The notes beneath the pieces are model-generated. The model searched no databases. It was not told where the DNA came from and was given only the letters and a program-made list of their open reading frames with translations. A stretch of 64,000 nucleotides of DNA from a virus (lineage: Duplodnaviria; Caudoviricetes): IMG/VR virus record IMGVR_UViG_3300021399_000111, positions 77,936 through 141,935 of that record, one strand, 5' to 3'. Position 1 is the stretch's first letter. Each line of letters begins with the position of its first letter. Below are positions 6,992 through 40,600 of the stretch, piece after piece. A program made the position numbers and the translations under genes.

Positions 6992-7237
6992 TTAATCATT
7001 ATTTATTTTGAATTGATAAAAAAAGCTTCCAATCCAAGAAAGTGTTCCTGCAAGTAATGGAATCTGATTAAGGGCTATCGAGATATGAACTAAACTCAAT
7101 CCTTCAATAAGCACTTTACCTATTGTAATTTTAGCAATCCAGCCTACAAAATAACCAAACCAGAAGAAAAGAAATGGCTCAATTAAAAAGAATATAATGA
7201 AAAATATTAATACTTTATATAAATTATCTCTTTTCAT
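6992..7237 (-). CDS. Hypothetical membrane protein
   Basis: Hydrophobic; overlaps the upstream gene. Confidence 0.65.
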   Translation of the reverse strand: MKRDNLYKVLIFFIIFFLIEPFLFFWFGYFVGWIAKITIGKVLIEGLSLVHISIALNQIPLLAGTLSWIGSFFYQFKINND

Positions 7238-7781: not shown

Positions 7782-8310
7782 TTGAAGTCTCCTTATTATT
7801 TACTTTGAATAAATGCTTTCTTTCTTGATCTGTATCGTCTATAATGTGAATAATATCAAAACCCTCTTCGAAAGTTGGCATAGTGATTTGTGTTGCCATT
7901 CTTCGGATTACCTGCTCAGGAACATAAAATCGAGTGTTAATACGATTTTCATTTCTGTGAAGAGCCCTCCATACAGGAACTTTAAAAAATACAATTTCAA
8001 CACAACAATCTTTTAAAGACATTCCTAATGCACGAAGAAGTTTTGTACGGGATGCTTCATTAATATGAGTGGCATCCGCAATAACAGTTTGTCCATTATC
8101 AAGAGCTTTTTTAATTTCAGATACAAAAATATCATAAACTTGTTTTTCTTTATGAAAATAATCTTCTCCATCTTCGAGTAAAGAAAATCGAATTTGATCA
8201 CGAGAAACTAACTTATCAATATTTGCTGTTGGATGCTCATAAAGCTCATTTGCATAAGTAGATTTGCCCGAGCCGGGGATTCCACTCATCATAATCAATC
8301 TTTTGCTCAT
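7774..8310 (-). CDS. Polynucleotide kinase (AAA_33, Pnk-like)
   Basis: GIPGSGKST, SRD.IR, DATH...R, RN.NR...VPE.VI motifs. Confidence 0.88.
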   Translation of the reverse strand: MSKRLIMMSGIPGSGKSTYANELYEHPTANIDKLVSRDQIRFSLLEDGEDYFHKEKQVYDIFVSEIKKALDNGQTVIADATHINEASRTKLLRALGMSLKDCCVEIVFFKVPVWRALHRNENRINTRFYVPEQVIRRMATQITMPTFEEGFDIIHIIDDTDQERKHLFKVNNKETSNG

Positions 8311-8598
8311 TTAAATAACACCTTCTTTCTTCATTTTGTCTTTAAAGATACCATAAGGAAGGATTCTGTTTTGTTGTTCATCAAAATTATGGTGTTCAAA
8401 TTCAAATAGAAAATCATCATGGCTATATTTAGAACCAGGAATGCATTCGACATGATTAATTGTGTCATTGCAAGTTAAACACCAAAGTCGTTTAAGGTGC
8501 CCCGGTGCTCGTTCTTTTCCCTTAACTCTAACTATTGGCAAACCGCGGCTGCCGCATTTACAACAATAAAATTCATGATCAAGTATTAATGTTCCCAT
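8311..8598 (-). CDS. Zinc-ribbon hypothetical protein
   Basis: CxxC...GHLK.LWCxxC. Confidence 0.65.
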   Translation of the reverse strand: MGTLILDHEFYCCKCGSRGLPIVRVKGKERAPGHLKRLWCLTCNDTINHVECIPGSKYSHDDFLFEFEHHNFDEQQNRILPYGIFKDKMKKEGVI

Positions 8599-8676
8599 AA
8601 AATATCACTCCTTTATTTGATTTTCTATATATATTATAATATATTTTTTATAGAAAATCAAATAAAGAAAATTTAA

Positions 8677-8901
8677 TTAAACAAATTGATTTAAAAAAGT
8701 ATCAAATTCTATTGCATCACTAGGATATTCAACAGTAACACCTTGAGAAACATCAATGGACATAATTCCCATTAAACTTTTTCCATCAATTACATATTTA
8801 CCTCTTTTAAGAGTTACATCTCCTTCTACTCTTGTTGCTTCTTGGATAAAATTAGTTACATCAGCGAGTCCATAAATTTTAATATATTTAGTTGCTATCA
8901 T
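8677..8901 (-). CDS. HPr-family (PTS phosphocarrier-like) protein lacking the His15 equivalent
   Basis: IDGKSLMGIMSI (Ser46 region of HPr); 74 aa; no His in the sequence. Confidence 0.8.
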   Translation of the reverse strand: MIATKYIKIYGLADVTNFIQEATRVEGDVTLKRGKYVIDGKSLMGIMSIDVSQGVTVEYPSDAIEFDTFLNQFV

Positions 8902-8970
8902 AATATACCTCCTTTTTATACAACAACTAGAGCGAGTTTTTCTCGCTCTAGTTTATTAATTTTATTTAAA

Positions 8971-10155
8971 TTACTGGTGGTAACGAACTAGAAACTCATT
9001 AGATACTGCCTTGAAACTTCTAGTCCCATCTGGAGATCTAAATACGAGCCCTTCTCTCATACCTTCATCAATAACAGAAGTGCCAGTTGCAATTTTGAGT
9101 AACTCGTCAACAGTATCGGGAAGAATAAAATGCTCATTGACGATAGGAACCCAATGGATGCCATATCTTTCAAGGAACTCTTTTGCTTCAATAGAATTCC
9201 ATCTTCCATCCTGTGAAGTAATGAAATTAAAAGCACGGAAATCATGGTCAGCCATTCCATAGTATCTTCTCTGAATGCCCGCGCCGAAAGTTTCTCCCTG
9301 GATAGTTACCCATTTAAGAGATTTATTGTTTTTAAGAATATCCTTAAGTACATTCTCAATATTGTACTTTTTAGCCATTTCAAGATAAACATTAGTATCA
9401 TAGAAACAAGCTTTGTCAGGAGTATCAAAAACTACATTTCGAGAGCAAACATAGAAATCATACTTTCCAAACTTATCTCTTTTCATAGTGAAAGTAGTGC
9501 TTGTACCATCTATCTTCTCAGTTGCAATCCACTCAGACTTATCTTCAAGAATCCAAGTCATGTTCTGGACTCTCTCTTCGTCAGTCTTTACAACCCAAGC
9601 AGGCCAGTTTCGTACATCTCTCTTCTTACCAAAAAGAAGAATAAATACTCTCCGCAGAAACTTATTTCTCTTAATTACTTTACCCCATTTTCTTGCAATC
9701 TTAGGATGACGAGCAAGAGCTGCATTAATTCTAGCATCAGGGTTAGATTTAGCCTTTCTCTTATTATCCTCTGGCTCAGCATAGGTTACGCCAAGCTTTT
9801 CAGTAAGGAAGTCTCCTTCTACAAGAGAAGTAGCATCCCAACCAAAGTCCTTTGCGCTCATAAGAAGACCCTGAGAATAAAAACCAGGATTTTTTCCACC
9901 AAAAGTATACTTTTGAGTTTTTACATTACCATGTTTCTTTTCAAGAAATGCAAACTCAGGCTTAGTAGTGTCTACATGAGAGTCGATTTCAAAATAAATT
10001 GCAAGATCTCCAGCATTGAAAGTCCCTTTTCTAACCATGACCTTCCAACCGCCAACTACAGCAGCTTCGCAGTTGTCAGAACCAACAATAGGCTCAATAG
10101 CATCAATTTTTACTACATAAGCGAGTTCTCTTACATTAGTATTAGGATTAAGCAT
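8971..10155 (-). CDS. ATP-dependent RNA ligase (Rnl2/DRB0094-like) with N-terminal OB domain
   Basis: KTDEERVQN, TEKIDGTS (motif I), QGE, AFN, EGLVFR, FKAVS motifs. Confidence 0.9.
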   Translation of the reverse strand: MLNPNTNVRELAYVVKIDAIEPIVGSDNCEAAVVGGWKVMVRKGTFNAGDLAIYFEIDSHVDTTKPEFAFLEKKHGNVKTQKYTFGGKNPGFYSQGLLMSAKDFGWDATSLVEGDFLTEKLGVTYAEPEDNKRKAKSNPDARINAALARHPKIARKWGKVIKRNKFLRRVFILLFGKKRDVRNWPAWVVKTDEERVQNMTWILEDKSEWIATEKIDGTSTTFTMKRDKFGKYDFYVCSRNVVFDTPDKACFYDTNVYLEMAKKYNIENVLKDILKNNKSLKWVTIQGETFGAGIQRRYYGMADHDFRAFNFITSQDGRWNSIEAKEFLERYGIHWVPIVNEHFILPDTVDELLKIATGTSVIDEGMREGLVFRSPDGTRSFKAVSNEFLVRYHQ

Positions 10156-10278
10156 TTTTTACACCTCTTTTCTTTTCTCTTTCATTTTCTATAAATATTA
10201 TAACAAATATTTTAATAAAAATCAAATAAAATGCGGCGGTCCAGTCTTTGAGATCTCTTAAGCTAGCCCGCCGCATAA

Positions 10279-10599
10279 TTATTTCACAGGAACAATATTA
10301 TCTGAATCTGAAGGAATAATATCTTCACCAATTTGTCCATTGGGACCGAATTCCTTAATTCTTACAATAGTGTTCTTTCGCAATCCGCCAAAGGTATTGA
10401 TAAAAACTCCTAATGCAGCTTTAGCATCTACTGCAGTTACACCACGCGCTTTTGATAATCTAATTGTTGTTTTAGTATGAACAGGATCTCCATATTTTGC
10501 TTCTTTTGTTGGATACCATTCAAATTCATAACTTCTAAAAATTTGATTAGCCATTATTAATATCTTCCTCCATTGATTAATCAAAATATATTTCTTCAA
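10279..10599 (-). CDS. Hypothetical protein (true start probably MANQ at about 10554)
   Basis: GGAGG RBS precedes the internal ATG. Confidence 0.65.
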   Translation of the reverse strand: MKKYILINQWRKILIMANQIFRSYEFEWYPTKEAKYGDPVHTKTTIRLSKARGVTAVDAKAALGVFINTFGGLRKNTIVRIKEFGPNGQIGEDIIPSDSDNIVPVK

Positions 10600-11350
10600 A
10601 AGTGTCTAAGTCAAGAAGAGCGATACGATTAGATACAGCGGTACACATGTCTATACAAAACTTATGTCCATCACAGTAACGAATAATTGTAGGTTTAGGA
10701 TATGATGTATCATCTCCATATAACCAATTATGCGCTTTTTTTATATCTTCTTTTGTTTTAGGCGGTTGACCTTTATATCCGAATTCATATTCCAGAAATT
10801 GAACTGGAGTATGCCCATGAACTAAATAAATAGTATTAGGGTCTTCTTTTGTGAAAAAATCATCCTCTACCCAATTATCATAGAAATGACTTCTATCCCA
10901 AAGGGGGTCATGGGGACGGTGTGAAGCTATTAAAGAATGCCCGGCGTGTTCCAAAATTACAGTATGAGATCCTTTAACAGAATAATATACTAATTGTTTA
11001 GGTAATTTAGAAATAATATTAATATAATGATCTTGAATAAATCTAGGGAATTTAAGTAATTGATTTACTGTTAAATTCTCACTATCATCAAAAATTTCCC
11101 AGCGGTTAGGCTTGCGTCTATGGTTTATTTCTTCCACCATCATATCTTCGTGATTACCACAAAGAAAGTGTACTCTAGGATCATCTATTAATACATTAAA
11201 TAATTCTAAGCCATGCGGGCCTCGATCAACTGCATCACCAATAAAATAAAGTGTATCATCAGGCTGCAACCAATTTAAAACTTTTTTGCCTAATTCAAGT
11301 TGAGCATGCCAATCTGAACTTGCAAAAACTCTTCCCATAAAAAACACCAC
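10577..11350 (-). CDS. Ser/Thr protein phosphatase family metallophosphoesterase
   Basis: SDWH, GDAVDRG, GNHE, HAG, HGHTP motifs (PPP/lambda-phosphatase type). Confidence 0.88.
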   Translation of the reverse strand: MVFFMGRVFASSDWHAQLELGKKVLNWLQPDDTLYFIGDAVDRGPHGLELFNVLIDDPRVHFLCGNHEDMMVEEINHRRKPNRWEIFDDSENLTVNQLLKFPRFIQDHYINIISKLPKQLVYYSVKGSHTVILEHAGHSLIASHRPHDPLWDRSHFYDNWVEDDFFTKEDPNTIYLVHGHTPVQFLEYEFGYKGQPPKTKEDIKKAHNWLYGDDTSYPKPTIIRYCDGHKFCIDMCTAVSNRIALLDLDTFEEIYFD

Positions 11351-11523
11351 TTCCTTTCTTTTATAATTAATTATATCATAATTTTTTTAAGATTTCAAAT
11401 TTGCGTTTTTTAAAAAATTATGATATAATAAAATTAGACAGAAATGTATAATTTTTTTAGAGAGAAAATTATATATTATGAGAAGAAGGATTTTCTCAAT
11501 ATTTTACAAGGAGGTAAAAAAGT

Positions 11524-12897
11524 ATGGGTATGAAATTAACAGGACTTGTTTCTGGAATGGATACTGATGCAGTTATTAAACAAATGACATTAGCATACAC
11601 AGCAAAAAAAGATAAAGTCTGGAAAGCTAAAGAAACTTTAACTTATAAACAAGATGCTTGGAAAAATCTTAATAAAGAAGTTTATGATATGTTTACAAAA
11701 CTTTCTAAACTAAGATTAACTTCTACTTATCAAAGAAGTGAAGCCTCTTCATCAAATGAAAATATTGTAACGGTTGCGGGAGATAAAATTCAAGGGCAGC
11801 ATGATGTAACAGTGAAACAAATTGCTACTCAAACTTATCTTACTGGAAATATTGTTAATCAAAGTCAACCTATTAATGTTTCTGGTAATTTGACTGTTAC
11901 AATAGGCGGGAAAGAAAAAGAATTAAATATTACTCCAGATATGTCAATGGAACAAGTTGCTAGAAAATTAACCGAAGCGGGAATTATTGCTAATTTTGAT
12001 GAAAATAATGCAAGATTATTTTTAGCGTCAAAAACAACAGGAGCAAGTAGTGATTTTAATATAAGCGGAGATGCAAGCTTACTAGATGCCATAGGGCTAG
12101 GGTCTTCCGCAATAAAACAAGTTGGTAAAGATTCTATTATTAATGTAAATGGAGTGGATTTTGTATCTTCTTCAAATAAATTTAATATTAATAATATGAC
12201 AATTACCGCAAAATCATTAGGTTCTGCTACTGTTGGAATGAAAACAGATGAACATATTTTTGATACTGTTAAATCTTTTATTAAAGATTATAATGCTTTA
12301 ATTAAAAAAATTGATAGTTCTTATAATAACACTGCCGCAAAGGGATTATCTCCATTAACCGATGAAGAAAAAGATGCTTTAACAGATAAACAAATTGAAG
12401 AATGGGAAAGTAAATTAAAAGAGAGTGCTTTAAGCAAAGATGAAACTTTATCCTCTTTAAGTTCTTTGTTAAAAACTACAATGAGTTCTATTTCTGTTGA
12501 TGGAATTAATTTAACTTCTATGGGTATTACTCTTGGAGGATATTTCACAACAGAGAAAGATGAAAGAGGCGTTTATAATATTGATGAAGATAAACTCCAA
12601 AAAATAATTGCAGAGAACCCTGATAAAGTAATAAATTTTGTTACTAAACTTGCGGGAACCTTATATGATAAATTAAATACAAAGATGAAATCATCTTCTT
12701 TAAATAGCATTTATAGTATCTATAATGATAAGCAAATTAAAAATAATCTTGCAAATTATGATAAGAAAATTGCTGAATGGGAAGATAAGATTGTAAAAAT
12801 GGAAGATAAGTGGTATAAGCAATTTGCAAGAATGGAAAGCGTATTAAGTAAAACGCAGAGCCAAGCAAATTATTTATCAAATTTCTTTGGAATATAA
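11524..12897 (+). CDS. fliD: Flagellar filament cap protein FliD (HAP2)
   Basis: FliD_N (LTGLVSGMDT..VI..M; YKQ.AW..LN), GKDS.I.VNG...S.SN.F.IN, FliD_C (FIKDYNALI; PLTDEEK..LT..QIE.WE; KQFARME..LSK.QSQ..YL..F); strong AAGGAGG RBS. Confidence 0.93.
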   Translation: MGMKLTGLVSGMDTDAVIKQMTLAYTAKKDKVWKAKETLTYKQDAWKNLNKEVYDMFTKLSKLRLTSTYQRSEASSSNENIVTVAGDKIQGQHDVTVKQIATQTYLTGNIVNQSQPINVSGNLTVTIGGKEKELNITPDMSMEQVARKLTEAGIIANFDENNARLFLASKTTGASSDFNISGDASLLDAIGLGSSAIKQVGKDSIINVNGVDFVSSSNKFNINNMTITAKSLGSATVGMKTDEHIFDTVKSFIKDYNALIKKIDSSYNNTAAKGLSPLTDEEKDALTDKQIEEWESKLKESALSKDETLSSLSSLLKTTMSSISVDGINLTSMGITLGGYFTTEKDERGVYNIDEDKLQKIIAENPDKVINFVTKLAGTLYDKLNTKMKSSSLNSIYSIYNDKQIKNNLANYDKKIAEWEDKIVKMEDKWYKQFARMESVLSKTQSQANYLSNFFGI

Positions 12898-12931
12898 AAA
12901 AGGAGAAGGTTTTAAACCTTCCCCAATTTTT

Positions 12932-14383
12932 TTAGTATACAGCTAAATATCTCTCAGAAAGAAGAATATCAAGCATAAGTTCCATTCCATTCTTCCCTGT
13001 TGCCACCTGTTTAAAAATCAGCGGAGAAGATCCACTAACAAAAGAGACATTAGGGCCGAGATCAAGGAATGTATCATTACGAGCATCTACATTCCAATAA
13101 ACCAACCGAGGCATTTTAAGCCCAACTGCTTCCCACTCTTTCCGCATGATTTCCATTTCTGTGGCAGTTCTTTCCTCGCTCCAGCTTCCCACAGTCATAG
13201 CATTAATTTCCATATCGGAAATAACTACAACAGTATCAAGGCGGTCTTCAGGCTTTGCCGCAAGACTTGCTTGCTTAAGAAGTCTGAAGGTTTTTACAAG
13301 GTCTGTATCTTCACAGAGATTAGTGCGATAAATGCGGCGAACCTTATCTACAAAATCAACACCTTCAATTTTGATTAATTGAGGGCGAGAACTAAAACTA
13401 ATGTAGTGGTTCTTAAAAGGACCTCCAATGCGTTCCGCACAATACATGCCAAGCCCAATAGCCATATCAATAGGAGTTCCATGCATTGAACCAGAAGTAT
13501 CAACGACACAGATCATCTTACAAGGTTCGCCCTGTAAAACATCAATTTGATTCTCCCAATACTTTTCAAGCATTAATCTATCTGTATCACTGATATTGTA
13601 AGGGTAAGCCTTATGAACAATTTCATAAGGATAAAGCGCTCCAGCGTTCACCTTAGAATTCTTATCCTGCGCGAATGCTTCATATTTCTTTGCAATAATA
13701 TCTCTACGAGCAAAAGCATTGCGATAAATAAGACCCGCCTTAGAAGGGATTTTATCAAATTCAATTTCATCCCAACGATTTTCACTCATAAGTTTTTCAA
13801 TAATATTGATGCGAGAGCGCAGAGTAGAAAGTACTTTTCTATACTCTTTGTGAGTAAAACCAAGTGCTTCCCGCACGGCATTACCAGCCCTTTTAGTTTC
13901 TGCGGAAGATGCATTTTCAGAAGGAAGCCATTTTGCAAGTAAGCTAGGTGTCTTGCAATCTGCATCAAGAGCAAGCTGATGAGTAATAATCAGCATAGCC
14001 TCATTCCATACGGGAGTATCAAGAGTAGTATAAATTAAGTCATCCCATCTACCATATTCAGACACATTTTCAAGATTGCGGCGGGCTGCCTCAGGGAAAT
14101 TCTTGGCAAGCCAATTAAAGCACACACGAAAGAACCTACGCTCCCCCTGCCCGCCGCGAATATCACGAAGATAAAATAAACACTTTAAAGCAATAGATTC
14201 ATTCTCTTCAAAAGCATTTTTAAATGCAAGAATACAATCTTCATCAGAGCGTTTTCTATATGCTCCGCAAAGTGCAAACATATCCAAAATCGCACTTCTA
14301 GTTGTATTATGCTTCAATCCGCCATTCTCAGTATATCCAAAATTAGTAGTTTCAATTAAAGCATCAAGTAATGAATTCATCAT
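12932..14383 (-). CDS. DUF2828-type Ro60/TROVE-related protein with C-terminal vWA domain
   Basis: TENG, FYLRDIRGGQGER, YGRWDDL, LAKWLP; vWA MIDAS VVDTSGSM, ISDME, YWNV. Confidence 0.85.
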   Translation of the reverse strand: MMNSLLDALIETTNFGYTENGGLKHNTTRSAILDMFALCGAYRKRSDEDCILAFKNAFEENESIALKCLFYLRDIRGGQGERRFFRVCFNWLAKNFPEAARRNLENVSEYGRWDDLIYTTLDTPVWNEAMLIITHQLALDADCKTPSLLAKWLPSENASSAETKRAGNAVREALGFTHKEYRKVLSTLRSRINIIEKLMSENRWDEIEFDKIPSKAGLIYRNAFARRDIIAKKYEAFAQDKNSKVNAGALYPYEIVHKAYPYNISDTDRLMLEKYWENQIDVLQGEPCKMICVVDTSGSMHGTPIDMAIGLGMYCAERIGGPFKNHYISFSSRPQLIKIEGVDFVDKVRRIYRTNLCEDTDLVKTFRLLKQASLAAKPEDRLDTVVVISDMEINAMTVGSWSEERTATEMEIMRKEWEAVGLKMPRLVYWNVDARNDTFLDLGPNVSFVSGSSPLIFKQVATGKNGMELMLDILLSERYLAVY

Positions 14384-32487: not shown

Positions 32488-32501
32488 TTATTTGCACCTC
32501 C

Positions 32502-32687
32502 TTATAATTCATGCCAAGTGTAATCATTACCCAGCATCCATACGGAGGAATCTTCAAGGATGATGCAAGTGCTTCCTGGCAACCATGCAGTAGTAGGAAG
32601 AGTTTCTATATCAGCAAGAGTATCAGCTACGGTATCATATTTATCATATTGTACTGTATCACCTTGCTGGATAATGGTGTATGCCAT
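32502..32687 (-). CDS. Small conserved phage protein, first gene of the fibre operon
   Basis: D...DI..LPT...PGS.C.......W.L.....W.EL; GGAGG RBS. Confidence 0.7.
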   Translation of the reverse strand: MAYTIIQQGDTVQYDKYDTVADTLADIETLPTTAWLPGSTCIILEDSSVWMLGNDYTWHEL

Positions 32688-32958
32688 GTATTTTTCCTCC
32701 TTCTTTTTATTTCCTCTTCTTAAGAAAAAGTAACCAATACTTCTCTCTCTATATATTTAGATTTTTTTACTGATTAAATTTAGGGATTTGCCCAAGAAAG
32801 TAAAAGTGAAAATAGAAAATTGCGGGCGTCCTTTGGTTTTGGGAAGACGATGTTCTTGACCATTAGCCGCCCAAGCATCACAACGCAAAAAATGGCAGAG
32901 AGTACATGCTCTCTGCCATAGCAGCCCAGAACTGAACTTATAAATTCATCCCTAGACA

Positions 32959-33040
32959 CGCTGCACACAGGATTCGAACCTGCAAAGCCTTTCAGCTCAA
33001 CGGTTTTCAAGACCGCTCCCTCACCGCCCGGACATGCAGC
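32959..33040 (-). tRNA. tRNA-Ser(TGA), short D-loop
   Basis: GCGGT-CTTGAAA-ACCGT; long variable arm. Confidence 0.88.
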
Positions 33041-33091
33041 ATTATTATTCACTTATCTGACTATATTGCGCTTTATAGCGACGATTTCCGC

Positions 33092-33200
33092 AAGACACAA
33101 TTAAAGCGTGGATTCGAACCACGATTACTTGACTTCCATCAAGCGTCCTTCCCCTTAGACGACTCTGGCTAGGAGCCAGTATGTTTGCTGTTTATGTCTT
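33092..33200 (-). ncRNA. Stem-ACAGCAA element copy 3, enclosing a tRNA-like D/AC/T domain
   Basis: AAGACATA-A-ACAGCAA...TGTGTCTT; D-arm GTCTAAGGGGAAGGAC, 6-nt anticodon loop, T-arm CGTGG-TTCGAAT-CCACG. Confidence 0.75.
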
Positions 33201-33210
33201 TCTTTTGTAG

Positions 33211-33300
33211 CGGAGCCTGAAGGACTCGAACCTTCACACCAGATTTCTCTGGTCTAATTGATTAGCAATCAATCCTCGTCACCAATTTGAGTAAGACTCC
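33211..33300 (-). tRNA. tRNA-Ser(GCT)
   Basis: ATTGA-TTGCTAA-TCAAT; long variable arm. Confidence 0.93.
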
Positions 33301-33406
33301 ATTTGTGAGGACTAGGGCCTACCTCACTGTACCCGAAGCCTGAAACGGGCTTTCTCTTAATGTCGAGCCACAGCACATTTTTTTATTTCTTGATTTGCTT
33401 TGAAAA

Positions 33407-33482
33407 AGATATCGGTAGGATTCGAACCTACGACTACGAGTTTTGCAGACTCGCCTCTTTAGCCAGACTTGAGTACGATATC
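33407..33482 (-). tRNA. tRNA-Cys(GCA)
   Basis: CGAGT-CTGCAAA-ACTCG; U73. Confidence 0.93.
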
Positions 33483-33490
33483 AACTAGTG

Positions 33491-33574
33491 TGGGCGAAGA
33501 GGGAGTCGAACCCACTCGAACCCGAAGATAGCAGATTTACAGTCTGCCCAGCCTCCGTAGCCGTTTACTCGCCC
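33491..33574 (-). tRNA. tRNA-Tyr(GTA)
   Basis: GCAGA-CTGTAAA-TCTGC; long variable arm. Confidence 0.9.
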
Positions 33575-33730
33575 AAAATCGCGGAGCGCAACCTCCGCCC
33601 GCAGAGGAGTTCCCCTGGAATTCCCAATCTTGACGAAATTGGTGGTGGACCTCTATACGGTATTATCATTGGTGACCTCTTCTGAGGAACCGCATCCGGC
33701 CTCGGGTGTTAATGACTTTTCCTTGTCAAG

Positions 33731-33810
33731 TATCCGAGGAGGGACTCGAACCCTCACGCCTTCGCACTGCATCCTTAGTGCAGCCTGTCTACCAATTCCA
33801 GCACTCGGAC
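33731..33810 (-). tRNA. tRNA-Leu(AAG)
   Basis: CTGCA-CTAAGGA-TGCAG; Leu-type D-arm GGAATTGGTAGAC; A73. Confidence 0.9.
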
Positions 33811-33815
33811 ATAAA

Positions 33816-33889
33816 TACTCAAGGTAGGAATCGAACCTACAAGACTTTGATTTTGAATCAAATATGTCTACCAATTGCATCACTTGAGC
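33816..33889 (-). tRNA. tRNA-Leu(CAA) with short variable loop
   Basis: TTTGA-TTCAAAA-TCAAA; variable region only 4-5 nt. Confidence 0.88.
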
Positions 33890-33896
33890 CTAGATG

Positions 33897-33969
33897 TCGA
33901 GATGATAGGACTTGAACCTACAGCTTCTTCCTTGTAGGGGAAGCACTCTCCCAGTTGAGTTACATCTCG
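33897..33969 (-). tRNA. tRNA-Val(TAC)
   Basis: CTTCC-CCTACAA-GGAAG (C33). Confidence 0.9.
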
Positions 33970-33975
33970 AAATTC

Positions 33976-34042
33976 TTGCAACATTAGGATTCGAACCTAA
34001 ACCTCCGCAGTCAGTGTGCTCCTCCAATTACACCATGTTGCT
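33976..34042 (-). ncRNA. tRNA-like RNA with truncated anticodon arm
   Basis: GCAACA/TGTTGC acceptor, D-arm and T-arm TTAGG-TTCGAAT-CCTAA intact; anticodon arm reduced to CTG-ACTG-CGG. Confidence 0.7.
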
Positions 34043-34194
34043 AACGATTATTCATACTTTCACATCTGTTTAGCTATTTGCGCAATATAGCTCCGCTTAT
34101 ATTTCTTCCACCAATAAGTTGTTGCAACAACTTATTATCACCCTTGATGCTATCTCTTTGAATAACCGTTGATTGTACTTGCAATTACAATCAA

Positions 34195-34325
34195 GAGGGA
34201 AGGTGAGGATTTGCACCCCTACATGATATAGCCCATTATGACCAAACACAATTCATCGAACGCGCTTTACGCTCCTTATCGCTATATCTTCCCAAGCCCG
34301 CGTCTACCTATTCCGCCACATCCCA
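34195..34325 (-). ncRNA. Expanded tRNA-Leu-like RNA
   Basis: GTGGCGGAATAGGTAGACGC D-arm identical to tRNA-Leu(TAA); T-loop TGCAAAT; about 75-nt insert closed by GATATAGC/GCTATATC in place of the anticodon arm. Confidence 0.6.
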
Positions 34326-34874
34326 CTTACTCTGAATTGGTTTATAAATAGTTAATAATGAGACGATACCACCGCTCTACCTGAGGATAACTTTCCCAAC
34401 CTACAGAATATACTCTGTTTTCCAGATAATATACTCTGCTGCATGCTAGGTTGCTCAGGCCCCCGACATTAGTCGTTCAGAAGGTTTCTACGCACCTACA
34501 ACAAATAGATAGCTTACCGCAAGAGGCGAATTCATTTTTGTTCTTGTCTCTGATTCAAGGATATAAGGGGTGGCTTCGCCTAGTATCCCTTGTTCCTCTC
34601 TCGCCCATTTCAGCTAACAACCCTGGTCCTCGTGCTTCCACTTGTCTCGAACCTTTACCTGTAGGAGAACTGATCAGGTCCTCGTTCGCAGGCTTTTCCC
34701 CCGAAATCTGCGGGTCTGTTTGGGGACTTAGTGGTCAGCACAGCACATAGGTGGCAACATTTTAGGGTCCGTCGCCCAGACCGCTTGAGACGGGTTTTAT
34801 GTCTCCGTTCCGACAGATGATTATTTGTGCCCCTTATCCAAGGTTTTGCGTATGCATCCGCCACAAATAATCTA

Positions 34875-34958
34875 TGCTGATGGTGGGACTCGAACCCACA
34901 CGAGCTTTCGCTCAACGGATTTTAAGTCCGTTGCGTCTACCTATTCCGCCACACCAGC
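34875..34958 (-). tRNA. tRNA-Leu(TAA)
   Basis: ACGGA-CTTAAAA-TCCGT. Confidence 0.96.
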
Positions 34959-34965
34959 GAAGAAC

Positions 34966-35036
34966 TGTGCCCTACAGGAGTTGAACCTGCCTAGTTAGAT
35001 TAAAAGTCTAATGCATAACCGATTTGCTAAGGGCAC
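34966..35036 (-). tRNA. tRNA-Lys(TTT)
   Basis: TTAGA-CTTTTAA-TCTAA. Confidence 0.93.
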
Positions 35037-35196
35037 TGAATCTATCAGACTAGCTTTTCAAGATTGCGGATTTCGCGTTTCAGCCGCCTAACAACTCCGC
35101 CCGCCTTGATATCCTTAGGATCATTTACCAACTTATTCAGTCTATCTCTTTTCAGTGCCAACTTTTCATTAATAGTCATTTCTCTCTTCTCCTTTT

Positions 35197-35553
35197 TCAA
35201 TCATCTTCCCACATAACAGTATCATGCATTGGAGCAAAGGTCTTAATACGATTATGTTCTACAATACCAAGCAACTTTTCATTATCATCTTCTTCTAAGA
35301 TATAAATACGAGCAGTATCAGAAGTAAATGCTTTCCTTCCTTTTGGTTGAGTACACAACTTGGCACATTTTTCTATCCTTGCCATATCAGTTGTATTTAA
35401 CTCCATACGACCACCACCGCCAACAACGATAAAGATTGGTTTACCATTTTTAAACTTAGGTTTTGTATCAAGAATTCTACCAATCCATTTAATATGATAT
35501 TCGCTATGGACATCCTTAACTATTAAATGAGTTTTAATGAGAATCTCTTCCAT
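35197..35553 (-). CDS. Hypothetical protein
   Basis: ORF coupled to the upstream gene. Confidence 0.7.
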   Translation of the reverse strand: MEEILIKTHLIVKDVHSEYHIKWIGRILDTKPKFKNGKPIFIVVGGGGRMELNTTDMARIEKCAKLCTQPKGRKAFTSDTARIYILEEDDNEKLLGIVEHNRIKTFAPMHDTVMWEDD

Positions 35554-35758
35554 TGTTTATCCTTTCAAAGAAATCCATAATATCATTGTTAACTTGTCTA
35601 GTCACTATATCAGAACTGGCTACTGATTTAGATGGCGGAGGATTAGGATTATGTTCTTTCCAACATTTTAAATAGTGCTTTTGAATAAGTTCCTCTGTTT
35701 TAAACTTCTTAAAACAAGTAGGACAAATAAACAATATATTTATTCTCCTTTTCTCCAT
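35534..35758 (-). CDS. Small C2H2/C2HC zinc-finger-like protein
   Basis: CPTCFKKF.....IQKHYLKC. Confidence 0.6.
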   Translation of the reverse strand: MEKRRINILFICPTCFKKFKTEELIQKHYLKCWKEHNPNPPPSKSVASSDIVTRQVNNDIMDFFERINNGRDSH

Positions 35759-35924
35759 TTGATATATATATTATATCATAAATTTTAATAAAAATCAAAT
35801 GGTGTTTGCGGGCGCCGCCTCGGGAACTATTAAACGGAACATCAGGCGCTTTATATCCACGCCCGCCGCACCTCCAATATAAAAACGGGTTTTTGATTAT
35901 GCTAGAACCCCTTAAAACTAGCGA

Positions 35925-35998
35925 TAGCGAGGGCAAGATTTGAACTTGCGACCTTCTGGGCATGAGCCAGATGAGCTTCCGGACTGCTCCACCTCGCG
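35925..35998 (-). tRNA. tRNA-Met(CAT), initiator-like
   Basis: CGCGAGG start with unpaired 1:72; TCTGG-CTCATGC-CCAGA. Confidence 0.9.
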
Positions 35999-36019
35999 AT
36001 ATAGCATAGGGATAATTAC

Positions 36020-36140
36020 AAGACACTCAAGTTTTTGCTACCATTACACCATACAACCCCTAAATTGCACTGGGATTCGAACCCAGACCAAAAAATTTGC
36101 AGTTTTCTTTTATTCTTGAAAAATTTGCTGTATGTGTCTC
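36020..36140 (-). ncRNA. Stem-ACAGCAA element copy 4, enclosing a circularly permuted tRNA domain (YrlA-like)
   Basis: GAGACACA-T-ACAGCAA...GTGTCTT; internal order is anticodon-like hairpin, T-arm CTGGG-TTCGAAT-CCCAG, acceptor 3' TGCAATT, loop, acceptor 5' GGTTGTA, D-arm TGGTGTAATGGTAGC. Confidence 0.8.
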
Positions 36141-36142
36141 AA

Positions 36143-37061
36143 TCACCTGACCGGGACTCGAACCCGGATTTGCAGCGTGAAGCTGATTATGAGTCTTGCA
36201 CTCATATTTTTGACCAATCATCGTCAGAATATTTATTTATGTCAACTTTCTTTCGAGGAAGATTAAATTTATCGCACCATTTCCTTATAGCATTATCAGT
36301 TACTCCATATTGTAAACCTATCTGAGTAAAAGGCAAAGTACGAATTAATTTTTTTAATTCTTCTCTTGTAACAGGTAAATCTGTACAAGGAATAATTTGT
36401 TTTTTAGAAGAACATTCTCTACATCTTTGACTTTCTTTAGAAATTTCTTTCCCACAATCAATACAAAAATTCTTTTTTATATATTGTTTTCTATTTTTCC
36501 CATTTGTAGTATCTAATTGTTGATTACAATTAGGACAAACCCAACGAAGATTCTCTAATCTATCATCATGATTTGAACCATTAATATGATCGAGAATTAG
36601 AATTAATTCTTTTCCTTGCCATATTGGTTCTTGTCCACAGATACTACATACATATGGAACATAATTTCCTTTTACAAACCAATTTCTTAATGTTTTTTGA
36701 TCAGCAGTTGAATTTTCTACAAAAACATTTTCTACTGTTCTTTTAATTGGTTCCTTTTTTTGTCCAAAATGTGAATAATCAAATTTTTCAATTTTTTCTT
36801 CTAAAAAATTTTTTAAATCTCCTGAGAAAGCTGTATATCCCAACTTTCTTGCTAATTCTCTAAAAGAATTAGACTGTTCAACAATTTGTTGTAATTCATT
36901 TTCATTATAATTATCAATTAAAGAACTCATATATTTCTCTCCTTTTTTTGATATTATATATGAAAATTGAACTTACATAATTGAATTCGATTGTCCAAAA
37001 GTTTTCCTTTTAAACTAAAATCAACAAGGCTGCTGTCCTAGACCTGTTAGACGACCAGGCG
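36143..37061 (-). tRNA. tRNA-Glu(TTC) split by an 845-nt insertion (exons 37061-37027 and 36181-36143)
   Basis: Joined exons give a 74-nt cloverleaf: CGCCTGG/TCAGGTG acceptor, GCAGC-CT|TTCAC-GCTGC anticodon arm, CCGGG-TTCGAGT-CCCGG T-arm. Confidence 0.9.
36202..36930 (-). CDS. HNH homing endonuclease with zinc fingers, inside the tRNA-Glu insertion
   Basis: CSICG..LILDHING.NHDDRLENLRWVCPNC; CIDCG..RCREC; terminal HTH-like segments. Confidence 0.92.
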   Translation of the reverse strand: MSSLIDNYNENELQQIVEQSNSFRELARKLGYTAFSGDLKNFLEEKIEKFDYSHFGQKKEPIKRTVENVFVENSTADQKTLRNWFVKGNYVPYVCSICGQEPIWQGKELILILDHINGSNHDDRLENLRWVCPNCNQQLDTTNGKNRKQYIKKNFCIDCGKEISKESQRCRECSSKKQIIPCTDLPVTREELKKLIRTLPFTQIGLQYGVTDNAIRKWCDKFNLPRKKVDINKYSDDDWSKI

Positions 37062-37417
37062 AGAATCGATTTTAGAGGATAATCGAGAACCCGTGCTCCC
37101 TATACGCCGAGTCAGCGGTTTTTGTTATGATTTATATACCGGTAGCAAACAGGTTTTCTCCGCAAAGCCCGGTTAAAAAGACAATACCTTAACTACTTGG
37201 TTATGACCGCATTAACACCTAGTGTCTGCCGCCACTCGGATTTGCACCGAGGATTTTGTCTTATTCTCCACGATAGCCTGCCGATACAGCGCGCCCACAT
37301 CTGTTACTCTCTAGCTACTAGAGCGAGATTCGGACTATCCTCCAATCGGTTATCTACCCTTTGTGGAAATGAAGTCGTCCTGCCCCACTCCGAAGAGGTT
37401 GCGTGTCCTGACTTCAA

Positions 37418-37490
37418 TGACGGATGCGAGATTCGAACACGCGTTCCCCGACTGAGAATCGGGAGTCCTGAGCCACTAGACGAATCCGCC
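37418..37490 (-). tRNA. tRNA-Glu(CTC)
   Basis: CCCGA-TTCTCAG-TCGGG. Confidence 0.9.
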
Positions 37491-37730
37491 AGCTAATGCG
37501 TTTGCTTTATTTTTTACGAGTAATCAAGACGCTAATGGAAACTCGGTTCTTTTAACGAGGTTGTCTCCTCAATGAAGATAGGAAGAGTTGTGGGTTACTA
37601 CCGACCTCTTTCTGCAAGCCTTTTCAACTAAAAAGTATGCTAACTATCTTCTTAAAAAATATATACAAGTGTTTTTCATTTGTTATATATATTATAACAT
37701 ATTTTTTATAAAAAATCAAATTATTTTCAA

Positions 37731-37806
37731 TGGAGCTTATGAGAATCGAACTCATCTGCTTTCCGCATTGCAGGTGCGGTGACCACTCCTTGCAGTCCCA
37801 AACCCC
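37731..37806 (-). tRNA. tRNA-Ala(TGC)
   Basis: G3.U70; CCGCA-CCTGCAA-TGCGG. Confidence 0.9.
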
Positions 37807-37812
37807 AATCTC

Positions 37813-37936
37813 TAGGCACACCACTCTTTTTTTATTATTTTAAGTGGGAAAAATCTGTTGTTCAAAAAATCCACCGCGCTTTACTTTAAAAACAGTTAGC
37901 TTGATATTTTGTTAAAGTTTGCTGAACTTGTGCCTA
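37813..37936 (-). ncRNA. Stem-WCAGCAA element copy 5
   Basis: TAGGCACA-AGT-TCAGCAA...TGTGCCTA, between a promoter and tRNA-Ala. Confidence 0.55.
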
Positions 37937-38003
37937 TATATTTTCTTTTTCCTTAACTTTCTATAAATATTATAATATAATTTTTATAAAAAATCAAATT
38001 GGA

Positions 38004-38076
38004 AGCACCATGTGAGACTCGAACTCGCATTTCAGACTTGGCAAGCCTGTATATTAACCACTTATACGAATGGTGC
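38004..38076 (-). tRNA. tRNA-Gly(GCC)
   Basis: CAGGC-TTGCCAA-GTCTG. Confidence 0.93.
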
Positions 38077-38580
38077 AAAATACAAAACTCTAAATAATCT
38101 TTCTTAAAACATTTTACTTCCTCGCCTAGACATTGTTAAGGGGTCTGCGGGGCCACACCTCTTCCATAAATCCAGAATATTCCTCAAACATTTTAAAATT
38201 AATTATCTAAAAGTTTTGCTAAAATAGTTTTATAAGCAATTCGTTGGGCTACATTAGTGTATTTCATGTTCACTTATAAAAATATTTTTTAATATAGTTT
38301 TCCCATCTATTATTTAACTCCTAATACACATTCCCCTGTTTGACGTACAGGTAGAGTTATAACGCACATACAGTCATCTCTACGAAGTAGCTCGGCTATT
38401 CAGATATATCGTTTCACTGAAATAGCAGGATGGAGTATCCTTTTTCTATATGTGATGTAAGAAAAGAGCCTTCAGCTATAGGAGCAGCTCTCATGCATAT
38501 TCCCTAACGAGGATTTGGGACATCTATTTTAGATGCTTCCTACCCCGCCTATATTCACATCTTCTTACATTCAATTTAAA

Positions 38581-38653
38581 AGCACCATGTGAGATTCGAA
38601 CTCACATAGCAGGCGTGGAAGACCTGCGTACTAAACCGTTATACGAATGGTGC
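38581..38653 (-). tRNA. tRNA-Gly(TCC)
   Basis: CAGGT-CTTCCAC-GCCTG. Confidence 0.93.
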
Positions 38654-38655
38654 AT

Positions 38656-39217
38656 TTAGGATTGCTTTATTCTCACGCTCGTACAATCCTGCCGATGTAC
38701 CCCATCGGACGCCGTCGCATCTCATTATTTTTCATCTGCCCTTTGCGAGGAGCAGGCGATCTCGTTTACTGTCTATGGATCCTCGACAACTAAAGCCTAC
38801 CTCCGCCGTAGAATTTCAGCAGACGCTCAACCCTGTCTACTTCAGGACCACCCAGCACTTAAAGTGATCAAGAGCCATGGTCTCCAACGAGAACTTTTGC
38901 CCGTGTTAGCCGCCATCTGCCTAGCCTTTCGACTTGCCGAAATTAAATTAAAGAAGGACTCGACCAACATCCTACTTCGTTTGCAAACTAGCTTACTTCA
39001 TTTCGAGGCTTAGGCGAACACCTCAGGTAGCAACATAGCTTAATTAGACCTACCGCATTTTCTTGGCATCTTTTTACCATTCTCGTTGGTGGGTGAGGAA
39101 AGACAATGCTCTGCAAGATCCCCTACGATTAGCTTCCCTCTGGTCGCTAACTAACCACTGGTTTGTTCCTGTTCAACTCCAGCATCAAGCCACTCTAACG
39201 CTTTGTCTGCCTTAGAG
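38656..39217 (-). ncRNA. Candidate large structured ncRNA (about 560 nt) between tRNA-Asn and tRNA-Gly
   Basis: No ORF, raised GC, long-range CCAACGAGAA/TTCTCGTTGG pairing, terminal hairpins. Confidence 0.55.
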
Positions 39218-39220
39218 AAA

Positions 39221-39292
39221 CGGGAGTGTAGGGACTTGAACCCCAATACTACGGTTAACAGCCGCATGTCCTGACCATTGGACGACACTCCC
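39221..39292 (-). tRNA. tRNA-Asn(GTT)
   Basis: TGCGG-CTGTTAA-CCGTA. Confidence 0.92.
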
Positions 39293-39453
39293 TATTTAGG
39301 ATTTTCCATACAAGAAAGACCCTAAACTTTCATGTATGAGGTGAGATTTCTCTAAATCTCCGCACTCTCAAAAGCATCACCATAGCCTTTTATTATTCCT
39401 CGGTTTTAGTACGAGGTGGGATTAGAGAGGTGACAAGGAACCCTTACTTCGAG

Positions 39454-39526
39454 CGACCCCAGCGAGAATCGAACTCGCGACACGGATGTGACAGACCCGC
39501 ATTTTAACCATCTAAACTATGGAGCC
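39454..39526 (-). tRNA. tRNA-Asp(GTC)
   Basis: CGGGT-CTGTCAC-ATCCG. Confidence 0.93.
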
Positions 39527-39929
39527 AATTGCGGAGCCCATCCCGCATTTGTTGGGCAAAAAGAAAGAGAGGGGATATAAGATAAAGGAAAGACCTCAAA
39601 GGGAAAAATGTCAAAGCACTTCACATCCCCTTACCTTATATAAATATTATAACAAAAATTTTGAAAGAAATCAAGTAAATGGAACTCGGTTACATTTATC
39701 CACCGAAAAGTTAAACCCCGAGGGCCACAGGTGGTCGCCACTTGCTTTGAACAACTAGAATTTGTAAGAAATAAGATTTTTCTTTTTCAACTTTCTTACA
39801 AATATATTATAACAAAATTTTTATTAAAAATCAAATTGAGATATTTTATTTAAAATTTTGTTATTTCCGTTTCATACATTTTGTCCAATAACTTTATAAT
39901 TTTTCTTGTATGTAAGATGGAACCTTATC

Positions 39930-40001
39930 TAGGCTACCTGGGAATCGGACCCAGATCTACAGTTCCGTAGACTGTTGTTCTGTCCATTATACTAGTAGCC
40001 T
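39930..40001 (-). tRNA. tRNA-Arg(ACG)
   Basis: ACAGT-CTACGGA-ACTGT. Confidence 0.92.
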
Positions 40002-40007
40002 AAGAGA

Positions 40008-40081
40008 TCGGGAAGAGGGGACTTGAACCCCCAGCCTTTGGTTTATAAGACCACTGCGCTAACCTGTTGCGCCACTTCCCA
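40008..40081 (-). tRNA. tRNA-Ile(TAT)
   Basis: GTGGT-CTTATAA-ACCAA. Confidence 0.88.
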
Positions 40082-40084
40082 GTA

Positions 40085-40155
40085 TTGGGCATAATGGAAT
40101 CGAACCATTATTACCTCCTTATCAGAGAGGCTTCCTACCTTTGAAAGAATGCCCA
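40085..40155 (-). tRNA. tRNA-Ile(GAT)
   Basis: CCTCT-CTGATAA-GGAGG. Confidence 0.9.
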
Positions 40156-40156
40156 G

Positions 40157-40228
40157 TCAAGCGTCTGGGAATCGAACCCAGATTAACAGATTAGAAGTCT
40201 ATTGTTCTTTCCATTAGACTAACGCTTG
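40157..40228 (-). tRNA. tRNA-Arg(TCT)
   Basis: ATAGA-CTTCTAA-TCTGT. Confidence 0.92.
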
Positions 40229-40254
40229 ATTACAAAGTAAATATCATTCATTCA

Positions 40255-40296
40255 CTTTGTATATATATTATATCAAAATTTTTATTAAAAATCAAA
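40255..40296 (-). promoter_or_regulatory. Example of the pervasive sigmaA-type early promoter (TTGAYT-N17-TATAAT, often extended -10, followed by ATATAYA); drives the tRNA operon
   Basis: Same element precedes many genes, e.g. near 3060, 8630, 10195, 15105, 35770, 37690, 40915, 45255, 46435, 48255. Confidence 0.85.
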
Positions 40297-40600
40297 TAAG
40301 GAAATTTTTATTTCGAGCAATCTTGTTTATATATAAAACAAAAGCATGCATATTAGAATAATGGTTTTTGTCCCAGTGATATAACAAAGTTTTTCCATCA
40401 AAACTAATATGATCTGGTTTATAGTTCTCAATAAGCCACTTAATAAAATCTACTGGTGCCATATTAAGAAGCCTTGCGGGAACCCACCAATAACCGCTGA
40501 TTCCCGCTAAATCATTAACATCATTACAATGCCAGCCAGATGCACTCTCCCATTCTGTATACTTTAGGATATGTTTGCTCATTTTAAATTCCCAATGCAT
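40292..40600 (-). CDS. Hypothetical protein
   Basis: ORF in operon. Confidence 0.7.
   Translation of the reverse strand: MHWEFKMSKHILKYTEWESASGWHCNDVNDLAGISGYWWVPARLLNMAPVDFIKWLIENYKPDHISFDGKTLLYHWDKNHYSNMHAFVLYINKIARNKNFLI

Follow-up and report, generated by a model that had tools for sequence, protein, structure and literature searches.

The subject of this analysis is a tRNA-Glu(UUC) gene that is split in its anticodon loop by an 845-nt insert carrying an HNH homing-endonuclease gene, found in a Caudoviricetes phage (IMG/VR record IMGVR_UViG_3300021399_000111). The window, that is, the whole stretch of DNA analysed, is 64,000 nt long and spans positions 77,936 to 141,935 of that record; coordinates below are those of the window unless another record is named. 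The source genome is complete and terminally redundant, with 141,935 bp at 33% G+C, and originates from ruminant gut samples. Its long minus-strand cluster comprises 25 tRNA genes and a transfer-messenger RNA (tmRNA) gene when called by Rfam and by ARAGORN without introns, and the tmRNA gene points to a bacterial host. The 26th tRNA of the genome, tRNA-Glu(UUC), appears once ARAGORN allows introns: without that option no tRNA is called at 36142..37062, and with it tRNA-Glu(ttc) is reported there on the minus strand, with an 845-nt insert arranged as gcctt-intron-tcacg, i.e., after U34. The parts of the locus are as follows.

37026..37062, minus strand: exon 1 of the outer tRNA-Glu(UUC), with one extra base added by ARAGORN at 37062
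37061-37055, minus strand: exon 1 acceptor 5′ strand CGCCTGG, with the D arm next
37033-37029, minus strand: exon 1 anticodon stem 5′ strand GCAGC
37028-37026, minus strand: exon 1 loop bases C32 U33 U34
36181..37025, minus strand: 845-nt insert, the candidate intron, whose two ends jointly form a tRNA-like cloverleaf
36951..37000, minus strand: upstream block TTTTGGACA..GTTCAA..GTTCAA..TATATAAT, common to free-standing homologues of the HNH gene
36937..36944, minus strand: ribosome-binding site AAGGAGAG, read from the sequence
36202..36930, minus strand: HNH homing-endonuclease gene, 242 aa, 729 nt including the stop, single-copy in the genome
36142..36180, minus strand: exon 2 of the outer tRNA-Glu(UUC), CCA not encoded
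36180-36177, minus strand: exon 2 loop bases U35 C36 A37 C38
36176-36172, minus strand: exon 2 anticodon stem 3′ strand GCTGC, with the T arm next
36150-36144, minus strand: exon 2 acceptor 3′ strand TCAGGTG, followed by the discriminator A at 36143

The initial annotation had read this locus as a tRNA-Glu(UUC) with two intact halves around an 845-nt HNH insert, and all of the features it listed are present. It had placed the insert in the U-run near U33/34, which agrees with the ARAGORN call, a one-base shift inside the run being formally possible. Its estimate of about 96 nt upstream and 20 nt downstream of the 729-nt open reading frame (ORF) is closely matched by the 95 nt measured before the ATG and the 21 nt past the stop, or 116 non-coding nt in total. 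The insert ends in ...CAGCU (...AAUCAGCU), with U as its final base and, as had been claimed, no terminal G. The pairing of its ends (GTTGATT, 37025-37019, with AATCAGC, 36188-36182) and the hairpin over the stop codon (ATGAG-TGCAAGA-CTCAT, 36205-36189, which includes the TGA) are likewise borne out. Joining of the exons is predicted to give ...GCAGCCUU followed directly by UCACGCUGC..., or, in a longer form, ...GGACAGCAGCCUU followed by UCACGCUGCAAAUCC..., and the minimum-energy fold of the whole 921-nt precursor retains the outer cloverleaf, the inner terminal helix and the inner hairpin. These features exceed chance, as the same design recurs in 19 distinct loci and does so with covariation.

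The split gene is the phage's sole gene for a GAA-reading tRNA. The claim that it is the only Glu(UUC) gene had been made for the window and extends to the complete 141,935-bp genome, where ARAGORN finds no second tRNA-Glu(UUC) and where the only other Glu tRNA gene is Glu(CUC). In the ORFs of the phage GAA is used about four times as often as GAG, at 58 versus 14 per 1000 codons.

What had been missed is that the ends of the insert form a complete tRNA cloverleaf, in which the HNH gene stands as the anticodon loop. The elements of this inner cloverleaf are:

37019..37025, minus strand: acceptor-like 5′ strand GTTGATT, its G1 being the first base of the insert
37000..37016, minus strand: D-like arm AGTT-TAAAAGGAA-AACT, with UU at positions 8-9 before it
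36995..36999, minus strand: anticodon-stem-like 5′ strand TTTGG, pairing with TCAAA at 36213-36209
36209..36213, minus strand: anticodon-stem-like 3′ strand TCAAA, within the final HNH codons
36189..36205, minus strand: T-like arm ATGAG-TGCAAGA-CTCAT, with a 5-bp stem, a 7-nt loop and the TGA stop in its 5′ strand
36188-36182, minus strand: acceptor-like 3′ strand AATCAGC, abutting the T-like arm without a spacer
36181, minus strand: discriminator-like base U, the last base of the insert and the predicted RNase Z cut site

The inner structure thus has a 7-bp acceptor with a contiguous 5-bp T stem, a 7-nt T loop, a G1 and an unpaired discriminator. The T-like arm runs straight into the acceptor 3′ strand, as in tRNAs, and 3 bases separate the T-like hairpin from the anticodon-like stem. 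In three relatives (L020, L068 and L128) the T-like loop is the canonical TTCAAAT. The 5′ half of the inner cloverleaf is closely similar to genuine phage tRNA-Gln(UUG) genes, to whose D arm its D-like arm is homologous. Scanning IMG/VR with a degenerate D-arm pattern gave mostly chance AT-rich matches and no new copies, and it did surface genuine tRNA-Gln(UUG), pointing to the origin of the shell. The insert itself escapes ARAGORN as an intron-containing tRNA, since it no longer has an anticodon loop.

Nineteen distinct inserts of this tRNA-shaped design occur in phage contigs from rumen and gut. Across them pairing of the inner acceptor holds in 131 of 133 cells, with 12 distinct helices and 33 cells changed on both sides; exchanging the 3′ strands among the inserts leaves 96.5 ± 4.8 paired cells, and the value of 131 was reached in 0 of 2000 exchanges. 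The T-like stem is paired throughout (95/95 cells). The inner anticodon-like stem shows 5/5 pairs in 17 of the 19 introns, with several pair sets, and is weaker evidence than the acceptor helix because its registers were fitted. Within the acceptor, G1-C72 is invariant (19/19), and a G·U occurs at pair 2 in 13 of the 19 sequences. Such frequent G·U pairs argue for pairing in RNA rather than for DNA inverted repeats, where G·U is a mismatch.

All 19 inserts sit in anticodon loops of tRNA-Glu or tRNA-Asp. The insert was taken to begin with the inner acceptor's first base, and to end where removal leaves a 7-nt loop; with boundaries set in this way, 16 of 16 joined products re-run with ARAGORN are canonical tRNA-Glu(UUC), tRNA-Glu(CUC) or tRNA-Asp(GUC), the three later-found inserts (L216, L217 and L219) having been judged by eye rather than joined and re-run. 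An apparent spread over many other tRNAs (Gln, Ala-GGC, SeC-UCA, Gly, Trp) proved to be a boundary artefact of ARAGORN, and these cases, once re-derived, are also Glu or Asp. Three junction registers are seen, namely 34/35 (as in the window), 35/36 and 36/37.

The 3′ tails that follow the inner acceptor fall into two types. At 10 loci the tail is 4 nt long (ACCA in seven, and CCCA, GCAA and ACAA), and 67 of 77 neighbouring tRNA genes there encode CCA; at the other 9 loci, including the window, the tail is 1-2 nt long and CCA is encoded by 2 of 62 neighbours. Two of the long tails, those of L001 and L008, are NCAA and not NCCA. Both types are present in the Asp-intron clade and in the short-HNH group, and so do not reflect one split in the tree. 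That tail length tracks CCA encoding argues that the position of the 3′ junction depends on how tRNA 3′ ends are matured locally. The tRNase Z of T. maritima cleaves after A76 of CCA-containing precursors (PMC1540738; compare PMC7479834).

The protein encoded within the insert combines an HNH motif, a zinc ribbon and a C-terminal helix-turn-helix. It matches PHROG 10822 ‘HNH endonuclease’ (E=1e-38), while the Pfam models HNH and HNH_3 match it only below cut-off. More than 2,800 HNH homologues were found in metagenomes, and in an alignment of 24 sequences taken from them (A1) the motif DHINGxNxDDRLENLRWVCPNCN is invariant. By motif and family membership the gene belongs to the HNH homing endonucleases, and cleavage activity is predicted for its product. 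The ORF has a G+C content of about 29%. The block upstream, which in the form TTTGGACA..GTTCAA..GTTCAA..TATATAAT is shared with free-standing loci, is presumed to be the phage promoter or regulatory region of the gene. A promoter and a ribosome-binding site had both been assigned to this region; the ribosome-binding site can be read from the sequence, and the promoter gained no support from a scan for the sigma-70 consensus, which did not call the block.

In IMG/VR and in metagenome contigs the HNH homologues lie nearly always within tRNA gene clusters, on the tRNA strand. At 124 of 148 sampled loci the gene is free-standing, with no enclosing split tRNA called by ARAGORN, and such copies typically adjoin an intact tRNA-Glu(UUC), tRNA-Gln(UUG) or tRNA-Asp; at the rest, ARAGORN calls a split tRNA around the gene. 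In a tree of the HNH proteins, in which some labels are wrong and some loci duplicated, intronic copies are interleaved with free-standing ones and do not form one clade. Among the free-standing loci listed (of the 124), none has the helix, the D-like arm or the T-like arm beside it, which ties the tRNA-like ends to a position inside a tRNA.

Evidence for mobility comes from the closest copy, L216, whose HNH protein has 96% amino-acid identity with that of the window and which lies in a diverged tRNA-Glu allele. Nucleotide identity between the two loci is 94% and is confined to the split gene: the flanks do not align, and other genes share about 66% identity. About 5% of intron sites differ, against 13% and 23% of sites in the two exons, where compensatory changes affect the stems of the acceptor, anticodon and T arms, and the sequence immediately beside the junction is identical. 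A near-identical intron in diverged exons upholds the earlier suggestion that the element is mobile, and the pattern is what homing with short co-conversion tracts would produce. Two further close copies, L217 and L219, are both intact. A comparison with intron-less alleles in relatives had also been suggested; the scans were made, and exact-pattern searches of IMG/VR gave neither an intron-less allele of this tRNA-Glu nor its 3′ half. Against cultured-phage genomes, blastn returned only tRNA-Met matches and weak HNH matches.

The phage also encodes proteins predicted to act on RNA ends, as had been noted:

8971..10155, minus strand: ATP-dependent RNA ligase with an N-terminal OB-like domain and PF09414, the candidate sealing enzyme
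7774-8310, minus strand: polynucleotide-kinase-like gene, a candidate for RNA end healing
7224-7781, minus strand: metallophosphoesterase gene, a candidate for RNA end healing

The closest solved relative of the ligase is the Naegleria gruberi RNA ligase NgrRnl, of Rnl5 type (E=3e-29). PF09414 occurs in 7 of 7 intron-bearing phage records versus 6 of 12 in which only free-standing copies were seen. Neither the assembled contigs of three ordinary metatranscriptome runs nor the source DNA run show an exon-exon joint, and parts of the stretch have no RNA cover. A single RNA contig from metatranscriptome X4 (257 nt, 0 mismatches, depth 4.5) ends exactly at 36181, the last base of the insert and the predicted 3′ cut, and no informative RNA spans the predicted 5′ cut. 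Direct RNA evidence for removal of the intron is thin.

Taken together, we propose that the insert is a mobile tRNA-inside-tRNA intron that is excised by RNase P and RNase Z and whose exons are sealed by a ligase, a reading to which we assign a probability of roughly 0.55. The element would be a degenerate tRNA-Gln-like cloverleaf, with a promoter and the HNH gene in its anticodon loop, lodged between U34 and U35. At the level of DNA, the HNH enzyme would spread it into intron-less tRNA-Glu and tRNA-Asp genes of co-infecting phages. At the level of RNA, the minihelix made of the inner acceptor and T arm would give the two junctions the appearance of tRNA 5′ and 3′ termini. RNase P cleaves on the 5′ side of a 7-bp helix that stacks on a T arm, RNase Z cleaves after the discriminator, and it is the presence of an inner acceptor stem and T arm at the junctions that leads us to infer these two as the cutting enzymes. 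Host RNase P would cut before the inner G1 (U-1, G+1; between 37026 and 37025), leaving a 3′-OH on exon 1, and an RNase Z-type endonuclease would cut after the inner discriminator at 36181, or after an encoded CCA, leaving a 5′-phosphate on exon 2. The outer cloverleaf would hold the two tRNA halves together after the cuts. Since the products of RNase P and RNase Z carry 3′-OH and 5′-phosphate ends, they would be a direct substrate for an ATP-dependent ligase, most likely the phage's Rnl5-like enzyme, which would join the halves in the anticodon loop and presumably yield a working tRNA.

Several observations weigh against this proposal, and a number of them favour another explanation, in which a selfish insertion has inactivated the tRNA. 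The HNH cassette, with remnant halves of a tRNA-Gln gene that it had split before, would have landed at its own cleavage site in tRNA-Glu; its tRNA-like ends would be mere relics or would help to free the HNH mRNA from the transcript of the tRNA cluster or to stabilise it; the halves would look intact because invasions are recent and frequent, and no ligation would take place. We hold this to be less likely than the proposal, but it is a live alternative and the best of them. The intron is far more alike between the window and L216 than are the exons or flanks, which speaks for recent transfer, and since the intron moves faster than its exons diverge, intact halves can also reflect recent invasion. 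A broken copy does exist: L218 (Logan contig SRR23823269_211468), with an HNH protein 84% identical, retains exon 1 together with the HNH gene and the 5′ half of the inner cloverleaf, and an intact tRNA-Gln(UUG) replaces the T-like arm and exon 2. In Enterococcus phage PEf771 (L223 1404-2238 = MN241318.1 ~70651-71485), a tRNA-Lys gene is interrupted by 759 nt, nearly all of them the ORF of a distant HNH relative, without tRNA-like ends or other processing signals, and a second gene, tRNA-Lys(ttt), adjoins it. By analogy with that case, landing in an anticodon loop does not by itself imply splicing. Locus L001 likewise retains an intact tRNA, called Gln(ttg), beside its split gene, and phage tRNA genes are in general often dispensable. 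The exon-exon joint is absent from the three metatranscriptome contig sets, which capture tRNAs poorly. Further points bear on the enzymes. With 2-nt tails in 6 of the 19 introns and NCAA in L001 and L008, the 3′ boundary is not simply ‘after N73’; Rnl5-type ligases are known for nicks in duplex RNA and are not known to act on anticodon loops; and the co-occurrence of the ligase domain with the intron is suggestive only, as the sample is small and uncorrected for relatedness and the intron status of the comparison phages comes from one locus each.

Against inactivation stands the long-term maintenance of the structure. The inner cloverleaf is maintained by compensatory changes across introns whose HNH proteins are only 50-65% identical, and free-standing copies express the same gene without any shell. 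The inner ends match the junctions of a 7-nt loop to the base in 19 of 19 cases, with a tail that tracks CCA. The outer tRNA is competent to form a cloverleaf around 19 of 20 copies, the exception being the broken L218, and the split gene in the window is the sole reader of the phage's most-used Glu codon.

A less probable explanation, and in our view an improbable one, is that another endonuclease, of the anticodon-nuclease or EndA kind, makes the cuts and leaves 2′,3′-cyclic phosphate and 5′-OH ends, which the phage kinase and phosphoesterase would heal and the ligase would seal, the shell serving to present an internal loop. The phage does possess the full heal-and-seal set, whose healing members would be superfluous for the products of RNase P and RNase Z, and 2-nt tails are a misfit for a simple RNase Z rule. 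Moreover, known anticodon nucleases such as gamma-toxin and colicin E5 cut Glu, Asp and related tRNAs at the registers 34/35 and 36/37. On the other hand, heal-and-seal cassettes are common in phages, where they counter host anticodon nucleases, and this explanation accounts neither for the NCCA tail in phages that encode CCA nor for a 5′ junction that always coincides with the start of a 7-bp helix adjoining a T arm. The complete phage genome has no EndA-like gene (PF01974), and no RtcB or Rnl1 gene was found in the phage. A bulge-helix-bulge, with two 3-nt bulges that each hold a splice site and a 4-bp helix between them, is absent at the split tRNA-Glu: the junctions face each other from opposite strands of one 3 x 5-nt internal loop (3 nt in the 5′ strand, 5 nt in the 3′ strand), which is flanked by the 5-bp anticodon stem and the 7-bp helix. 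In these respects the likeness to archaeal endonuclease-encoding introns, which had been drawn at first, is not supported.

Splicing by RNA itself was sought with cmscan, as the initial annotation had advised, and no group I or group II match overlaps the ORF. No intron family, the group I model RF00028 and its subtype models (catalytic core P3-P9) included, is found at gathering score in the window, at E<=10 in 35900-37600 or at E<=5 in 32500-40500, no small self-cleaving ribozyme matches at E<=10 at the locus, and no Rfam intron or ribozyme matches at E<=0.01 in six related loci. Group I introns would call for some 200 nt or more of non-coding RNA and an omega G, whereas the insert has 116 nt and a terminal U; a group II intron (domains I-VI, with domain V) is contradicted by the lack of an Rfam match, by a start of GUUGA (not GUGYG) and by an ORF for an HNH nuclease, not a reverse transcriptase or maturase. 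Although homing endonuclease genes are usually carried by group I introns, a self-splicing or self-cleaving ribozyme, be it a group I core overlapping the ORF or an unknown small ribozyme, is very improbable given these negative searches, the few non-coding nt, the low G+C of the ORF, the final U, and conserved non-coding parts that are wholly explained by the cloverleaf and the promoter-like block. The original verdict of no self-splicing ribozyme is therefore upheld, and with ligase and healing genes present, protein-dependent removal, as first suggested, is the likely route.

Other arrangements of endonuclease and tRNA genes were also encountered. Enterococcus phage iF6 (L222 1416-2253 = MT909815.1 ~35520-36357) has an unannotated HNH gene inside a free-standing tRNA-like shell. 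PEf771 and iF6 carry distant relatives of the present arrangement that resemble its ‘inner shell’ state alone, and both are cultured phages and amenable to tests at the bench. In a relative phage, on IMG/VR contig 3300045988_174784 (L005; 2489-3334 and 4342-4894), two further tRNA genes are split by endonucleases of other types. Its tRNA-Leu(UAA) has a 770-nt insert that encodes another N-terminal nuclease domain joined to the C-terminal domain of this HNH family, and the insert in its tRNA-Met(CAU), of 481 nt, has ends that pair as a 10-bp helix (TTAGTTGTCA/TGACAACTAA). Neither of the two L005 inserts has a tRNA-like shell or an Rfam group I match.

The surroundings of the split gene hold several other unusual features. 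Directly 3′ of exon 2, at 36019-36140 on the minus strand, RF00005 gives a weak tRNA match (30.9 bits, 36066-36128) whose acceptor is truncated, and after it comes sequence resembling a tRNA 5′ half. On the other side, between tRNA-Glu(CUC) and the split tRNA-Glu, lies a G+C-rich tract without an ORF (37050-37405, minus strand). RNA contigs of the same 356-nt length cover it in two metatranscriptome studies (X5 and X6), and a 213-nt contig with the same 5′ end is found in a third (X4), which makes it a candidate stable phage non-coding RNA. Considered as an RNase P RNA or a trans-acting ribozyme, 37062-37416 gave no Rfam match and a fold z-score of -1.4, and it was kept as a separate, expressed non-coding RNA. 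ROOL RNAs (RF03087, 312-348 bits) occur in the tRNA clusters of relatives (L008 3982-4587 and L014 558-1136), yet the window has none at gathering score despite several large G+C-rich tracts without ORFs. The decoding set of the phage is unusual: ARAGORN calls a tRNA with a 4-base anticodon (ggaa) at 33098-33170, a tRNA-Ile(UAU) at 40008-40081 and a tRNA-Leu(AAG) at 33730-33810. In related phages, suppressor-type tRNAs with anticodons CUA and UUA (loci L004, L008, L042, L049, L116 and L124) and in-frame TAG codons inside the HNH frames of several relatives suggest that part of this group may have undergone stop-codon reassignment; the HNH ORF of the window is open under the standard code. The RNA-repair neighbourhood (7224-14383) also holds a gene for a DUF2828/DUF7788 protein, possibly Ro60-like (12932-14383), and one for a FliD-like flagellar cap protein (11524-12897), which is unexpected in a phage.

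If the halves are indeed rejoined, the element would be an intron that does without both a ribozyme and a dedicated splicing endonuclease and borrows RNase P and RNase Z by mimicry. We see about an even chance that this constitutes a fourth way of making an intron, with tRNA-disguised ends, RNase P/Z excision and sealing by a phage ligase, that it is widespread in gut and rumen phages and specific to Glu and Asp tRNAs, and that it arose from an endonuclease-split tRNA-Gln. Phage tRNA genes would then have their first described class of intron, phage RNA ligases would gain a housekeeping role besides anti-defence repair, and a step would come into view by which a selfish endonuclease gene turns phenotypically neutral. 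Tools for RNA processing could also be modelled on such a self-excising cassette in the shape of a tRNA. For annotation, tRNA finders without intron options miss such genes, and phage tRNA repertoires are consequently under-counted, while intron options mis-call the anticodons (ARAGORN gave Ala, SeC, Gln, Trp and Gly). Full-text literature searches gave neither tRNA-shaped or RNase P/Z-dependent introns nor phage tRNA genes split by an endonuclease in this manner.

The nearest comparison in bacteria is with the group I introns of tRNA genes, such as those of cyanobacterial and plastid tRNA-Leu(UAA) and of tRNA-fMet with I-Ssp6803I (PMC3984707). These share with the present element a site in the anticodon loop, a position after U34, an optional homing endonuclease gene and homing with co-conversion of exons. 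They differ in that the present insert lacks a ribozyme core and a terminal G, has just 116 non-coding nt, and forms a cloverleaf at its ends rather than P1-P10. A review from 2014 placed all phage introns then known in protein-coding genes, despite the many tRNA genes of phages (PMC3984707). The protein-spliced tRNA and rRNA introns of archaea and eukaryotes, which rely on a bulge-helix-bulge, EndA/Sen and RtcB/Trl1 and in some cases carry a LAGLIDADG gene, are alike in their dependence on proteins, their use of an RNA ligase and the possible presence of a homing endonuclease. Here, however, there is no bulge-helix-bulge or EndA homologue, the setting is bacterial, the element recognised would be a tRNA-like minihelix, and the ends expected are 3′-OH and 5′-phosphate instead of cyclic phosphate and 5′-OH.

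Endonuclease genes among phage tRNA genes are familiar from the free-standing SegB of T4 (PMC2330249) and from the HNH gene hegA of T5-like phages, where they drive inheritance of the region. The hegA genes are distant homologues of the window gene (26-27% amino-acid identity), which differs from SegB and hegA in lying inside a tRNA gene and within a tRNA-shaped shell. Signals for RNase P and RNase Z in tRNA-like form are known from the mascRNA of MALAT1, from mitochondrial tRNA punctuation and from the permuted tRNA genes of Cyanidioschyzon. In each, as proposed here, a tRNA-shaped fold guides the two enzymes to exact cuts, but the pieces are not rejoined there, whereas the outer tRNA halves of the present element would need ligation. 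For that last step the closest parallel is the repair of tRNAs by T4 Pnkp and Rnl1 and by Rnl5-type ligases (NgrRnl, DraRnl), since this phage, too, has a kinase, a phosphoesterase and a ligase that may be able to reseal an anticodon loop. In the T4 system the break is made by a host defence nuclease; in the split tRNA-Glu it would be programmed by intron removal, with a ligase that is not Rnl1 and with the kinase and phosphoesterase as separate proteins.

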